64,000 nucleotides of DNA from an uncultured Gammaproteobacteria bacterium (GCA_964629685.1 CAZVTT010000001.1:176627-240626); one strand, 5' to 3'. Counted from the first letter of the stretch, positions 17,994-23,074 are shown. Notes: generated from the letters alone by a model not told the origin. Translations and numbers: made by a program.

Positions 17994-19724
17994 TTAGACA
18001 ATTAACCCCTTGTTGCGCAGGTGTTTTAGAATAATACGGGCATTTTGCTCTGGTGTATTCCTCGTTGTCTTAACATGAAGCTCCGGAGAAACCGGTGGTT
18101 CATATTCATCACTGACACCGGTAAATCCGAGTATCTCTCCCCTTCTCGCCTTCCGATACATTCCCTTAACATCACGTGCTTCACATACATTTAGCGGAGT
18201 ATCAACGAAGGTAAGAATAAACGCACTCTCGGGCATCAGAGCTCTTACGGCATTACGGGTATTCTCATACGGACTAACGGCAGAACAAATGACTATTCCA
18301 TTGTGTTTAACTATTTCTGAAGCTACGAATCCGATTCTCAGTACATTCATATCCCGATCTTCTTTAGAAAACCCGAGACCTTTTGACAAATGTGTTCTGA
18401 TTACATCTCCGTCTAACAGTGTCACAACTCGGCCAGTCTCCCTCAGCATTGCCTGCAGAATTGCAGCTATCGTCGATTTACCCGCACAGGGTAGACCCGT
18501 AAACCAAATACAGAATCCCCGTTTGTGATATGGAACGTAGGTGTGTGCCAGAATAGATGCCACTTCCGGACGGGTAAACCACGCGGGTAAATTTTTACCG
18601 GTAAACAAATATCGCGATCGGACCTGTGTCCCCGATATGGATTTGAATATTTGATTCTTTTTCAGATCTTTTATCTCAACGTACTTTCTTTTTCCTGGTA
18701 GATATACCATTTCTTCAAAGAATACCGGCTCAACACCAATCTCACTTTTGTACTGTTTCATTAAATCATGAGCACCATAATCTGTATAAAAAGGCTTTCC
18801 TTCGGAGTTATTTCCGGGACTAGCATGATTTCTGCCGACGATAAAATAATTTGCGCCGTAATTTCTGCGGATAATTGCATGCCAAACCGCCTCGCGTGGA
18901 CCGGCAAATCTCATCGCCATGGGAAGAATACTCAGCATCGTTTTATTTTTATCGTAATAGGTGTCATACAGCACCTTGTATGCTCTTACCCGGGTATAAT
19001 AGTCAACGTCATCGCCTTTCGTAATCCCAACAGTAGGATGTATTAAGAGTGTCCCACCAACTTTTGCCGCAGCCCGCTTTGTCAATTCTTCATGGGCACG
19101 GTGTATTGGATTTCTGGTTTGAAAAGCAACCACATTCGGATTCCCCCTTTTAATCAATTCATTTCTGGTTTGCGCAGGCGTTAGCCTCAAAGATAGAAAA
19201 TCGTAGTGCTGTGGCAATCTGATCACTTCAAGTTTACCGCTTACCGCATATTTGCCCCAGGAAGCCATTTCAGAAATAACCGGATGAACGGTATCTGAAG
19301 ACCCAAAAACGGATTCTGCTTCATTTTTCAAATCCCGCTCAAAGAGTTCATCAACAGTCAAAATAGCGATTTTCTCATTCTGTTGTCCTCGTAAAAGAAC
19401 GCGCTCACCAAGTCGAATGCTCTTATAATCGGCAATCGGTAATAGTATAGGAATAGGAAACACCATGTTGTTTGCCAATCTCATATTCTTAACAACATTG
19501 CGATAGTCTGCTTCTCCCATGAATCGTTCCAGAGGAGATAAAGCCCCGGTGGCTATTAACTCCAAATCCTGAAGTGATCGCGGCGACAATTGAAGCGAAC
19601 GATATTCATGTGTTTGATCCTGTAGTATCCGAATATATTTTTCGTCGGAGGCGCATAGGTCAATAAGGATCCCTCCGTAGGGCAGAATCAGGTCAATGCC
19701 TGGTTTTAGTTTGTCTATCTTCAT
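17994..19724 (-). CDS. sat/cysC: bifunctional sulfate adenylyltransferase (ATP sulfurylase)/adenylylsulfate kinase, a PAPS synthase
   Basis: ATP-sulfurylase signature [14 protein letters not shown] with a GRNHASPG-like region. The C-terminal APS-kinase P-loop is [21 protein letters not shown], with [10 protein letters not shown]. Confidence 0.85.
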
Positions 19725-19907
19725 ACTGCTCCGTTAAATACGGACTATATATTATTTTGAAAAAAAATTTACGGTATAAACAATAAATACCGGTTATTGC
19801 ATTTTTTACTGATAGGAGACAAAATAGTACTTTTCATACATTCAGAATTTAATTCTGCGCAATTGCAAAAGCATTTGGCATTACAAACTCGCTACTTATA
19901 CTTGAAC

Positions 19908-21125
19908 CTATTTACTCTTGAGAATAGCCTCAGAAGTATGTAAGATTACGTCATTATAGAAATTTTCAGTCTGTTTTGCTACCGAAGAAATCCTAAACAT
20001 GTTTCTCCAAATCCTGTTGTTTTTCTCCATCTTCATTCTTTCGTCTGCCTTATAAATCAGCCTAAATATGGCATTCGCGCATTGCCGGACATTCCCGGGC
20101 TCATAAAGCATACCGTTCTTCCCCGATATGATAAATTCCGGTATACCTCCCGCATGACCAACTACTACGGCTTTCCCCCAACGAATTGCATCCAATATTG
20201 CCATGGGCTGATTTTCGAACGGAGATGTCGAGGCGACATAGATCATTGCTTTCCGATACAGCATATCCAGTTCAGTCTGCGTTTTCTGAGGTAAAATACG
20301 TATGTTTTTTTGTAATTTATTTTGTAAAATATATGAATTTAAATACGTTCTGTAACTTACCATTTTACCGTCTATAATCATTTCCGTATCTCCTCCTGCA
20401 ATAATAAACTTCAACTTTGGATAACGCCGGAAGATTGGGATACACGATCGGATTAAGAACTCAATTCCCTTCCCCTTTTCTAGGCCTCCCACTGTTAAAA
20501 GGTAGTCGGAGCTTGCTCTCCCAGGCGTAATGCGCGGAATAGTAATACCATTTGGGATGATTGCGTGAGGTATTTTCGTTAATGTGCGTAAGGCAAGAAG
20601 TAACCGATGTGTAGACAACATAAACCGCGTTGGTGCTGTTATACCGCTACAGACTAAAAGAGAGCACATTTCAAAAAAATGAACCAGTAGATGATCAAGT
20701 GTAACCGGCAAGTCATTATCAGCTCGGTATTGCAACCATGATTTATGTAACCTTACGACAGTTTTCGACTTAATGATGCAGGAAACAAACAGACAGCTTG
20801 ACCCACTCTCGGAAGTCTCAATTATTTGAAATGGTCCATGAGTTTTCACAAAATGATACACGCCAATCATCCATTTGATCCTATCTAATGTATAAGGGAA
20901 TAATGTATTCAATAATCCCTCTCCGGGAATTCTCCGTTTAAAATAAGCCAGCGTGTAGAATGATACGCCCTTTATATTTCTGTGTGTATCTGAATCGCCT
21001 CTCGCTAAAACAACCACTTCATGTTTTCTGTGCCGCATCTCTTTAGCTAACACCATTGTGTATGTCGTAATCCCGCTTGTTCTTTTACTGGGATACTCCA
21101 GAGGTATAATGTATAACAGCTTCAT
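19908..21125 (-). CDS. GT4-family glycosyltransferase
   Basis: MKLLYIIPLEYPSKRTSGITTYT at the N-terminus. C-terminal FENQPMAILDAIRWGKAVVV. Confidence 0.7.
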   Translation of the reverse strand: MKLLYIIPLEYPSKRTSGITTYTMVLAKEMRHRKHEVVVLARGDSDTHRNIKGVSFYTLAYFKRRIPGEGLLNTLFPYTLDRIKWMIGVYHFVKTHGPFQIIETSESGSSCLFVSCIIKSKTVVRLHKSWLQYRADNDLPVTLDHLLVHFFEMCSLLVCSGITAPTRFMLSTHRLLLALRTLTKIPHAIIPNGITIPRITPGRASSDYLLTVGGLEKGKGIEFLIRSCIPIFRRYPKLKFIIAGGDTEMIIDGKMVSYRTYLNSYILQNKLQKNIRILPQKTQTELDMLYRKAMIYVASTSPFENQPMAILDAIRWGKAVVVGHAGGIPEFIISGKNGMLYEPGNVRQCANAIFRLIYKADERMKMEKNNRIWRNMFRISSVAKQTENFYNDVILHTSEAILKSK

Positions 21126-21293: not shown

Positions 21294-22325
21294 ATGAAAA
21301 ATATCATTATTATAGGCTCAGGCAAACGCGTTCAGCATACTATTCTGCCCGCATTAGCCTGTCTTCCTCAGAAAGTCTTTATAACAGATATTTTAGGAAA
21401 ATCATCCAAAACAATCAGCAGTCCATTCGGCAAACTCAAAGTCCGCCCTATTGAAGATTTACCGTCAATAGATACCGAATTAACGGATACCATTATCATC
21501 GCTATTACCACAGAACACGTTCCGACAGTACTTAAAACATTAAGCCACATGGACGTAAAGCGCATCACTCTTTTTCTTGACACGCCTGTTTTCCTACCCA
21601 ATCATATCTACGCCAAATCATATGTAACAAAATTCAAAAACGTGTATGTAACAGAAGATATTGTAAAACTCTCTTTACTGACGATTGCTAAAAATGTAAT
21701 ACTTCAGAATAAAATAGGTGAAATACGGCACATCATCCTCTGGCATTCCGGATATAGACATCATGCACTCGCTTTCCTCAGAAGACTTTTATCCCAACCC
21801 TACATACGGCGAATTCGCAGGAAAAAATACAATGATTCTGTAGCTGAAACGTTCATCACGTTCCCCAATGGTATAACAGCTGCAATACTAGAACCGCGGG
21901 ATTATTCCGTTGGCAGGCTGCTGATAATTGGAGAAAAGGGAGCCATCGCAAATTATCCGTTAACAACCGATAATTCGATTGAAATTAAAATCATCGTTAA
22001 GAACAAATCTTATCAGGGGGTTAGCGTTACGAACACGGAACAAACGTACTTATTCAAAAAACCAAATAATTCAGACTTTAATTCAGTATTTATGGCAAAT
22101 GACACAATGGGCATGATGAAAATTGAAGCGTTAGCCTGCCTTTTCACCAGCTATATGTATGACAAACATGAAGAGCTATACTCACTTGGGGATGGTCTAT
22201 ACGATATGATGGCCACATATGCAGTACAAAAATATTCACACTTTTTTGATATAAAATTACCGTTTACGAACACTTCGCTAGTCCAGGCTGTGCTTACAAA
22301 AAACACACAGCCGGCAAAACGCTGA
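21294..22325 (+). CDS. putative NAD(P)-binding oxidoreductase (Gfo/Idh/MocA-like N-terminal domain)
   Basis: N-terminal Rossmann-like MKNIIIIGSGKRVQHTILPAL. The rest is divergent. Confidence 0.35.
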   Translation: MKNIIIIGSGKRVQHTILPALACLPQKVFITDILGKSSKTISSPFGKLKVRPIEDLPSIDTELTDTIIIAITTEHVPTVLKTLSHMDVKRITLFLDTPVFLPNHIYAKSYVTKFKNVYVTEDIVKLSLLTIAKNVILQNKIGEIRHIILWHSGYRHHALAFLRRLLSQPYIRRIRRKKYNDSVAETFITFPNGITAAILEPRDYSVGRLLIIGEKGAIANYPLTTDNSIEIKIIVKNKSYQGVSVTNTEQTYLFKKPNNSDFNSVFMANDTMGMMKIEALACLFTSYMYDKHEELYSLGDGLYDMMATYAVQKYSHFFDIKLPFTNTSLVQAVLTKNTQPAKR

Positions 22326-22330
22326 TCACA

Positions 22331-23074
22331 ATGAACAGTATGCAGCACTATAAAAAATTCCTTATTCTCGCGACGCAGCGTACAGGCTCCAATTTTTTGG
22401 CATATCTTTTAAATGATCATCCCAAAATCGTTGCCATCGGTGAGGTATACGACAAAAAGGGAATCGCCGGTCATCCAGGAAAAGAATATTTAAATAATAA
22501 ACTGTATTTAAAAATTCTTCGTGATATCGCCCCATTATATTTTTTGAATCACTATATATATAATTGCTACCCGGAAGGAACGGCAGCCGTTGGTTTCAGA
22601 TTCTTATATAACCAGGCAGAATACTTTAAACAAGTCATTAACCAAATAGAAAATTCCCGTGATATTTGGATAATTCATCTCAAACGCAGAAACTTATTTG
22701 AAAGCTATGTTTCATTTCAGCTAGCCATTAAAACCGGAATTTGGATTTCTTATAAAGGCGGCGTCCACAATTCGGAAAAAATTTCAATCGATTTCGAAGA
22801 ATGCAAAGAATATTTCAATCAAACGACCTCTCTCCAAAAAAACTTTGACTCGAGATTTCGTCATCATAAGGTGCTTACCGTGTACTATGAGGACCTGCTT
22901 GAAAAACCAAAATCCGAAATTAAAAAAATACTAAAATTTCTTAATGTAGAATATCAGGAGCTACACTCGCAGATAAAGAAACAGACGACCGCATCTCCTC
23001 AAACAATCGTCACGAACTATAACGAGCTAAAGCGTAAATTTAAATCTACACCGTGGTATGGCATGTTTAGATAA
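22331..23074 (+). CDS. PAPS-dependent sulfotransferase (Stf0/Sulfotransfer_3-like)
   Basis: 5'-PSB-like LILATQRTGSNFL near the N-terminus. 3'-PB-like HLKRRNLFESYVS. Size is 247 aa. Confidence 0.6.
   Translation: MNSMQHYKKFLILATQRTGSNFLAYLLNDHPKIVAIGEVYDKKGIAGHPGKEYLNNKLYLKILRDIAPLYFLNHYIYNCYPEGTAAVGFRFLYNQAEYFKQVINQIENSRDIWIIHLKRRNLFESYVSFQLAIKTGIWISYKGGVHNSEKISIDFEECKEYFNQTTSLQKNFDSRFRHHKVLTVYYEDLLEKPKSEIKKILKFLNVEYQELHSQIKKQTTASPQTIVTNYNELKRKFKSTPWYGMFR

Follow-up and report, generated by a model that had tools for sequence, protein, structure and literature searches.

A candidate self-contained glycan-sulfation module in the envelope-glycan locus of a small-genome, Microgenomates-like bacterium

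Introduction

Why would a bacterium with a small genome encode the synthesis of activated sulfate among the genes for a surface glycan? This question is raised by a 64-kb stretch of DNA (GCA_964629685.1, CAZVTT010000001.1:176627-240626; here called the window, in whose coordinates all positions are given), in which a bifunctional ATP sulfurylase/adenosine 5′-phosphosulfate (APS) kinase, Sat/CysC, is encoded two genes away from a small sulfotransferase of 247 aa. Together, the two would produce and use 3′-phosphoadenosine 5′-phosphosulfate (PAPS), and the original prediction for this stretch was that they sulfate a glycan or glycolipid of the cell envelope. The DNA most likely derives from a small-genome bacterium of the Microgenomates group within the Candidate Phyla Radiation (CPR), because the best relatives of most proteins of the locus belong to Candidatus Gottesmanbacteria.

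Sulfated polysaccharides have been described from several bacterial genera, although they are uncommon (PMC11625862, PMC8205485). In Vibrio sp. KMM 8419 the presence of cysNDC and sulfotransferases in a capsule cluster dependent on an ATP-binding cassette (ABC) transporter was proposed as a hallmark of the synthesis of sulfated polysaccharides, and the sulfated capsular polysaccharide was solved by nuclear magnetic resonance (PMC11641403). Synechan of cyanobacteria is a sulfated extracellular polysaccharide that depends on cluster-encoded sulfotransferases (xss; PMC8205485). The view that sulfated surface glycans are rare in bacteria thus holds in so far as they are uncommon, but they have been documented with PAPS genes inside the cluster (PMC11641403, PMC8205485, PMC11625862). 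Here we argue, with a probability of roughly 0.72, that the window carries a self-contained module for glycan sulfation within the envelope-glycan locus of a small-genome, Microgenomates-like CPR bacterium.

Results

The PAPS synthase

The 576-aa Sat/CysC protein consists of a PUA_2, an ATP-sulfurylase and an APS_kinase domain in this order (Pfam E-values of 1e-42, 3e-79 and 8e-61, respectively). It scored 768.9 bits against the NCBIfam equivalog NF004040 ('bifunctional sulfate adenylyltransferase/adenylylsulfate kinase'; cut-off 669), and both score and domain order place it in this Aquifex-type family, which confirms the fused sat/cysC gene that had been proposed. Its matches in the PDB include 3cr8 and 1i2d as well as the SAT/APS kinase of Aquifex aeolicus (2gks), which aligned with residues 41-575 (E-value 1.2e-223, 747 bits). 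The window and Aquifex enzymes share domain order, length, the P-loop GLPCAGKST and the DGD and FSKEDR motifs, whereas the GRDHAS loop of Aquifex is GRNHAS in the window. No role in a glycan cluster is known for the Aquifex enzyme. The APS-kinase motifs of the window protein (P-loop GLPCAGKS, LDGD and FSKEDR) are complete, as would be expected for a catalytic kinase, and the QxRNPxHxxH motif of the sulfurylase is present and intact.

The sulfotransferase

The check proposed in the original prediction was to compare the 247-aa protein with sulfotransferase profiles. It passed the Pfam domain thresholds of Sulfotransfer_3 (46.4 bits, cut-off 27), Sulfotransfer_1 (35.3 bits, cut-off 22) and Stf0 (PF09037; 26.8 bits, cut-off 22). 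The AlphaFold2 (AF2) model had a mean predicted local distance difference test score (pLDDT) of 87, and its top fold matches were all sulfotransferases. In an alignment of the subfamily, R17-x-G19-S20 (the 5′-phosphosulfate-binding (PSB) loop, of the Arg or 'RxG' type), E38 and R119...S128 (the 3′-phosphate motif) are invariant, and these residues match the cofactor-binding and catalytic elements of polysaccharide sulfotransferases, NodH and Stf0 (PMC11625862). With PSB loop, 3′-phosphate motif, catalytic base and fold all found, the protein belongs to the superfamily of PAPS-dependent sulfotransferases, in agreement with the PAPS-binding motifs and the location that had been described for it.

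The PSB motif of the window protein is RTG, and an RxG-type motif is a criterion for NodH-like enzymes (PMC11625862). When the subfamily profile was searched against the PDB, 'LPS sulfotransferase NodH' (9vki) was found with an E-value of 1.3e-13, Stf0 with 1.3e-4 and all others with 1e-5 or weaker. A tblastn search against plasmids retrieved rhizobial NodH with 26-27% identity over 100% of the query (E-value 1e-18); in the nod operon of R. tropici CIAT 899 the gene order is nodI-nodJ-sulfotransferase-cysD(nodP), and the matching sulfotransferase is NodH. No match on pSYSM was present among the listed plasmid matches. Against the NCBIfam equivalog for Stf0 trehalose 2-sulfotransferase (NF047724) the protein scored 28.3 bits, with a cut-off of 400, and only residues 99-231 aligned. 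Because of the profile E-values, the tblastn match to NodH and the Stf0 score below the cut-off, we rejected Stf0 orthology and regard the enzyme as NodH-like. The label 'Stf0-like' given to it earlier is therefore correct for the Pfam domain but not for orthology. The RxG motif and the full-length homology to NodH assign the protein to the NodH-like family (PF13469/COG4424), and candidate relatives are separated better by sequence than by structure. Since a hydrophobic segment is absent, the enzyme should be cytoplasmic.

The family is large, with 1,850 representatives of 50%-identity clusters at E≤1e-30, and spans Cyanobacteria, Chloroflexota, Balneolaceae, Planctomycetota, Woesearchaeota and other groups. 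Some members of 1,000-1,200 aa contain two or three sulfotransferase domains in tandem (P0165, P0172, P0181). In an uncultured cyanobacterium (L009/L020, contig_3355) three sulfotransferase genes lie among genes for glycosyltransferases of families 4 and 2 (GT4 and GT2), a methyltransferase and a Wzt protein with a Wzt_C carbohydrate-binding domain, which makes this locus a candidate cluster for a multi-sulfated, ABC-exported polysaccharide.

Linkage of the sulfotransferase and PAPS synthase genes

The genes were placed in their surroundings by Pfam scans of 50 open reading frames (ORFs) of ≥120 aa, which comprised every non-overlapping gene-sized ORF of the window. Sat/CysC and the sulfotransferase are separated by a GT4 gene and a gene for a 343-aa protein, the stop codon of which lies 5 bp before the sulfotransferase start (Table 1). 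On the minus strand, a string of genes was found in the order GT4, Sat/CysC, GT4 and a Wzx-like gene, with gaps of 183, 20 and 70 bp, respectively. The GT4 transferases, flippases and ABC exporter that had been reported around the two genes were all recovered by Pfam.

To be counted as linked, genes had to lie within 10 kb of each other on contigs with enough flank; most contigs of the metagenome scan were too short for this. All relatives that have a sulfotransferase at least 40% identical to that of the window, and enough flank, carry Sat/CysC or CysC within this distance, in a homologous glycan cluster with an ABC-2 exporter. These relatives fall into three other related clusters, namely those of Gottesmanbacteria (L002-L005/L043), L006/L044/L045 and L038. 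In L002, L006 and L038 the sulfotransferase occurs together with orthologues of the exporter genes wzt and wzm (48-60% identity). In Gottesmanbacteria, identities to the window proteins are 57% for Sat/CysC, 39% for GT4, 36% for the Gfo-like 343-aa protein, 43% for the sulfotransferase, 61% for DegT, 54% for Gfo, 39% for the next glycosyltransferase, 60% for Wzt, 55% for Wzm and 60% for Bac_transf, and the DegT and Gfo genes follow the sulfotransferase directly in a single gene string.

The two closest Sat/CysC sequences in a database of 5.8 billion proteins (61% identity) are located in L038-L041. The order in L038 is sulfotransferase (40% identical to that of the window), unknown, Sat/CysC, GT2, GT2, epimerase, Wzt/Wzm, Wzy_C and DUF4330, and the shorter loci L039-L041 contain the portion from Sat/CysC onward. 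In the third lineage (L006/L044/L045) a sulfotransferase with 43% identity occurs together with an APS-kinase gene, Wzm/Wzt and Bac_transf. The kinase gene (L006:12915-13880, minus strand; also in L007/L044/L045) encodes a protein of 321-334 aa with the APS kinase in its C-terminal two thirds and a nucleotidyltransferase-type HxGH motif (FHKGH) in the N-terminal ~130 aa. No full ATP sulfurylase was found within 10 kb of the L006 gene. This protein could be a minimal fusion of a sulfurylase with a kinase, or else a kinase for which APS has to be supplied externally.

In L038, the genes immediately upstream of sulfotransferase-unknown-Sat/CysC encode a sulfatase of the formylglycine type (PF00884) and a radical-SAM protein that binds B12 (L038:5242-8271), which suggests editing or recycling of sulfate on the same glycan.

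In a scan of species representatives, Sat/CysC was found within 10 kb of the sulfotransferase in none of 22 more distant homologues in larger genomes. Likewise, metagenomic sulfotransferase homologues of ≤35% identity with enough flank had no Sat/CysC within 10 kb. Several distant homologues that lack Sat/CysC nevertheless adjoin Wzm/Wzt. Linkage in reduced but not in larger genomes is consistent with a dedicated source of PAPS that is present only in the absence of a housekeeping one. In the simplest reading, the larger genomes draw PAPS from housekeeping sulfate assimilation, and these reduced genomes carry a PAPS synthase in the cluster. The conserved linkage and the likeness to NodH support the proposal that PAPS is used here to sulfate a glycan or glycolipid, even though the enzyme is no orthologue of Stf0.

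Alternative explanations

Several observations weigh against a working module. The GRDHA(G/S) loop of the sulfurylase is GRNHAS in the window enzyme (N299; codon AAT at 18828-18830), a position that is Asp in 119 of the 120 best database homologues, with the query itself as the sole exception. The Gottesmanbacteria enzyme (L002:4852-6567) has the same Asn and, in addition, HTRN in place of QTRN. Genes for a sulfate transporter and for a CysQ/PAP phosphatase were not found in the window by Pfam. Scans for promoters and terminators did no better in the window than in shuffled sequence (50 sites compared to 41.9±5.9 expected, and 11 compared to 11.8), so the operon structure is read from gene spacing. 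Furthermore, both the acceptor sugar and the choice between O- and N-linkage are predictions. Finally, PAPS/APS reductase and sulfite reductase genes, as had been stated before, were absent among the scanned ORFs, and this absence applies to 64 kb of a genome of roughly 954 kb; a PAPS reductase elsewhere in the genome is possible.

The last point bears on the idea that Sat/CysC performs housekeeping sulfate activation for cysteine or methionine synthesis, or for 'sulfate reduction', and lies in the glycan locus by chance. The family is widespread and used for assimilation in many phyla, and sat, cysC and cysN are listed as sulfate-reduction genes in dozens of CPR/DPANN genomes (He et al. 2021, PMC7906910). 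However, neither cysH nor sulfite reductase nor a sulfate transporter accompanies the gene in the 64 kb that the inventory covers, a GT4 gene follows at 20 bp, Sat/CysC is found together with the sulfotransferase and Wzm/Wzt in three further, independent clusters, and the sulfotransferase family in larger genomes is not accompanied by it. We therefore consider this explanation unlikely. The same low probability is given to a sulfotransferase, and a PAPS supply, devoted to a non-glycan acceptor such as a protein tyrosine (RaxST-like), a lipid or polyketide, or a small metabolite. The structural scores are compatible with such an acceptor, but the profile match to NodH (1.3e-13) far exceeds those to other solved sulfotransferases (1e-5 or weaker), and the conserved neighbours are all glycan genes, with no peptide-exporter, polyketide synthase or lipid-synthesis gene adjacent.

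The altered loop raises the further possibility that the module is partly decayed: D299N, together with the Gln-to-His change in Gottesmanbacteria, would impair Sat, the protein would act only as an APS kinase or regulatory scaffold, and the cell would scavenge APS or PAPS from its host. N299 is unique among the 120 homologues, with the Microgenomates relatives excepted, and the related L006 cluster has only the APS-kinase gene with its short HxGH N-terminus. Fusions of Sat and CysC with inactive domains exist in P. chrysogenum and T. denitrificans. A sequencing error was ruled out, since the Gottesmanbacteria orthologue has the same change, and N299 is thus a lineage trait. Our literature search found no account of what the Asp of the GRDHAG motif does. 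The exchange of Asp for Asn is isosteric, however. Between the window, L002 and L038 the remainder of the Sat domain shows strong conservation (identities of 56-61%), and every other invariant residue is retained, which points to purifying selection on a folded and probably active domain. This argues for a functional Sat/CysC protein, although competence as an ATP sulfurylase is not guaranteed given N299. From the aligned sequences, GRNHAS, with HTRN in Gottesmanbacteria, appears as lineage-specific drift at the sulfurylase active site, and we regard decay of the module as quite improbable. Dedicated PAPS synthesis for glycan sulfation is the reading that we prefer.

The 343-aa protein

The protein encoded directly upstream of the sulfotransferase had no Pfam match, as was also the case for four other ORFs at E≤1e-3 (7840-9888, 682 aa, within the glycan locus; 40294-41301, 335 aa; 46249-46941, 230 aa; 52515-55571, 1018 aa). 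Its AF2 model (pLDDT 88.5) gave inositol and sugar dehydrogenases as top Foldseek matches (E-value 2e-13), and distant homologues carry PF01408. We read it as a divergent oxidoreductase of the Gfo/Idh/MocA fold, with a probable role in the modification of a sugar precursor. In Gottesmanbacteria-like contigs, too, it is paired with the sulfotransferase. We rejected a two-gene module of this protein and the sulfotransferase that would extend across phyla: the cyanobacterial proteins that precede sulfotransferases in L009 are unrelated to it (15% identity), and homologues elsewhere pair with GMC oxidoreductases, which makes the pairing with the sulfotransferase Microgenomates-specific. In two unrelated larger genomes the 343-aa family adjoins a GMC-family oxidoreductase (PF05199; L010:8596-11026 and L012:10001-12639), and one of these pairs forms part of a heptose/NeuB glycan cluster. 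The arrangement suggests a sugar-oxidation module of two enzymes, so far uncharacterised, of which the CPR locus has only half.

The glycan locus and the rest of the window

The module is part of one glycan locus, which spans roughly 400-36,900 (~36 kb) of the window. Counting those of Table 1, the GT4/GT2 glycosyltransferases of the locus number at least seven and its Polysacc_synt (Wzx-like) proteins two; the locus further encodes two Wzy_C proteins, a PIG-L deacetylase, a methyltransferase, one DUF4330 and one DUF4012 protein. Bac_transf, GT4/GT2 and Wzm/Wzt genes occur together, as in ABC-transporter-dependent pathways for lipid-linked glycans. As Wzx-like and Wzy_C genes are present as well, the locus may specify more than a single glycan or route. 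Two SGNH/GDSL-like proteins, one of them fused to TPR, are encoded inside the locus (9885-11369 and 12051-13232); these are possible O-acyl esterases or transferases of a glycan.

Table 1. Genes at and around the predicted sulfation module.
Feature	Position	Strand	Evidence
Wzx-like (Polysacc_synt) membrane protein, end of the Sat/CysC gene string	15441..16721	-	PF01943 E 2e-9; strongly hydrophobic
GT4 glycosyltransferase, 393 aa, directly downstream of Sat/CysC	16792..17973	-	Glycos_transf_1 E 6e-25
Sat/CysC, bifunctional ATP sulfurylase/APS kinase (PAPS synthase), 576 aa	17994..19724	-	NF004040, PDB 2gks, Pfam domains
GT4 glycosyltransferase, 405 aa, upstream of Sat/CysC	19908..21125	-	Glycos_transf_1 E 6.5e-23; 39% identical L002 orthologue beside Sat/CysC
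Divergent Gfo/Idh/MocA-fold NAD(P)-type sugar oxidoreductase, 343 aa (predicted)	21294..22325	+	AF2 model, Foldseek, distant homologues
NodH-like PAPS-dependent carbohydrate sulfotransferase, 247 aa, soluble (predicted)	22331..23074	+	Pfam, profile search, AF2 model
GT4-like glycosyltransferase, 380-aa ORF (361 aa as called on Logan contig L001)	23090..24232	-	Glyco_trans_1_4 E 5e-11; L002 orthologue
Wzt-like ATPase of ABC-2 glycan exporter	24159-24950	-	ABC_tran E 4e-24
Wzm-like permease of ABC-2 glycan exporter	24947-25738	-	ABC2_membrane E 1e-17
DegT-family aminotransferase (amino-sugar precursor pair)	25980-27233	+	DegT E 1.4e-88
Gfo/Idh/MocA dehydrogenase (amino-sugar precursor pair)	27235-28257	+	GFO_IDH_MocA E 1.5e-23
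Bac_transf initiating phosphoglycosyl transferase	28440..29081	+	PF02397 E 6.6e-54; conserved in L002, L006

Beyond the glycan locus lie dnaA/dnaN, a type IV secretion-like cluster and genes for NAD and the mevalonate pathway; no tRNA or Rfam family was found in the window. The dnaA/dnaN genes (37612-40290) directly follow the glycan locus, and the minimum of the cumulative GC skew lies near 36-38 kb, so that the replication origin probably abuts the glycan cluster. The type IV secretion-like cluster (41306-59775) encodes a 957-aa protein with an M23 peptidase, a VirB4-like ATPase, a PrgI-like protein, a VirD4-like coupling protein and four paralogous T4SS_pilin proteins. The cluster resembles the monoderm-type secretion system recently discussed for Patescibacteria (bioRxiv 10.1101/2025.01.22.634366). 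The mevalonate-pathway genes (61201-63420) encode HMG-CoA reductase, followed by a thiolase-fold (ACP_syn_III_C) protein.

Discussion

From the gene content we infer the following route. In the cytoplasm, Sat/CysC would convert sulfate and two ATP into PAPS, while Bac_transf would initiate a glycan on a lipid carrier that the neighbouring GT4/GT2 enzymes would extend. The soluble NodH-like enzyme would then transfer the sulfo group from PAPS to a sugar hydroxyl of the lipid-linked glycan at the cytoplasmic face; a less probable acceptor would be the amine of an amino sugar made by the DegT and Gfo enzymes. Sulfation is expected to precede export, because PAPS is cytoplasmic and ABC-transporter-dependent pathways complete the glycan before it is exported. 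The most likely exporter of the sulfated glycan would be the neighbouring Wzm/Wzt ABC-2 transporter, and the product would be displayed on the envelope of the cell by a putative final anchor. Possible roles of the Wzy_C/DUF4330 and Wzx-like proteins are in ligation or in the synthesis of a second glycan.

This arrangement is most readily compared to NodPQ/NodH of rhizobia, where a NodH-family sulfotransferase also stands beside dedicated PAPS synthesis and an ABC-2 exporter in a glycoconjugate cluster, and where sulfation in the cytoplasm precedes export, as we infer for the window. In contrast to NodP/NodQ, which are CysD/CysN-CysC, PAPS in the window would come from a fused Sat/CysC of the homo-oligomeric Sat type, and the host would be a small-genome, CPR-like bacterium. 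The window genes would also build a glycan linked to a lipid carrier (Bac_transf, GT4/GT2, Wzy_C), without NodA, NodB and NodC. Since no nodABC genes were found in the window, the acceptor is expected to differ from the lipochitooligosaccharide of NodH, which is 6-O-sulfated on the reducing N-acetylglucosamine.

The Vibrio sp. KMM 8419 cluster is similar in that it, too, combines PAPS genes and sulfotransferases with the genes for a polysaccharide that depends on an ABC transporter. Its PAPS genes, however, are second copies beside a housekeeping set, whereas the window copy may be the only one; the PAPS enzymes also differ in architecture, and the Vibrio envelope is Gram-negative with Kps-type export. 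With synechan the window shares cluster-encoded sulfotransferases, and cyanobacterial members of the window's family exist (L016, L020), but a dedicated PAPS synthase was absent from the cyanobacterial loci examined. The mycobacterial Stf0/sulfolipid-1 system is less similar, as trehalose, Pks2 and MmpL8 genes are absent from the window and the context is that of a polymeric glycan. Because PAPS genes inside clusters for sulfated bacterial glycans have been documented already, the novelty lies in the lineage and not in the mechanism. Our literature search found no publication that links CPR/Patescibacteria with sulfotransferases or sulfated glycans.

Community metabolic models count CPR sat/cysC as sulfur-cycle ('sulfate reduction') capacity (PMC7906910). 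We tentatively propose, as a possibility that we hold to be rather less than even, that sat/cysC genes of CPR bacteria, and perhaps of DPANN, that were published under this heading are dedicated suppliers of PAPS for sulfation of surface glycans. If these genes do serve glycan sulfation, the biogeochemical attributions would be wrong for this lineage. The module of Sat/CysC, the 247-aa NodH-like sulfotransferase and Wzm/Wzt is also a potential source of polysaccharide sulfotransferases for biotechnology.

In this tentative reading of the sat/cysC genes, ultra-small episymbionts that are unable to assimilate sulfate would spend ATP to present sulfated glycans on their surface. Even an N-linkage of the sulfate to the amino sugar made by DegT, similar to that in heparan, is conceivable, and the glycan could mediate attachment to a host or evasion of phages or immunity. 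For the little-known surface chemistry of CPR/Patescibacteria, which live attached to hosts, our interpretation of the locus makes a concrete and testable prediction: the envelope of these cells would carry an anionic, sulfated glycan.

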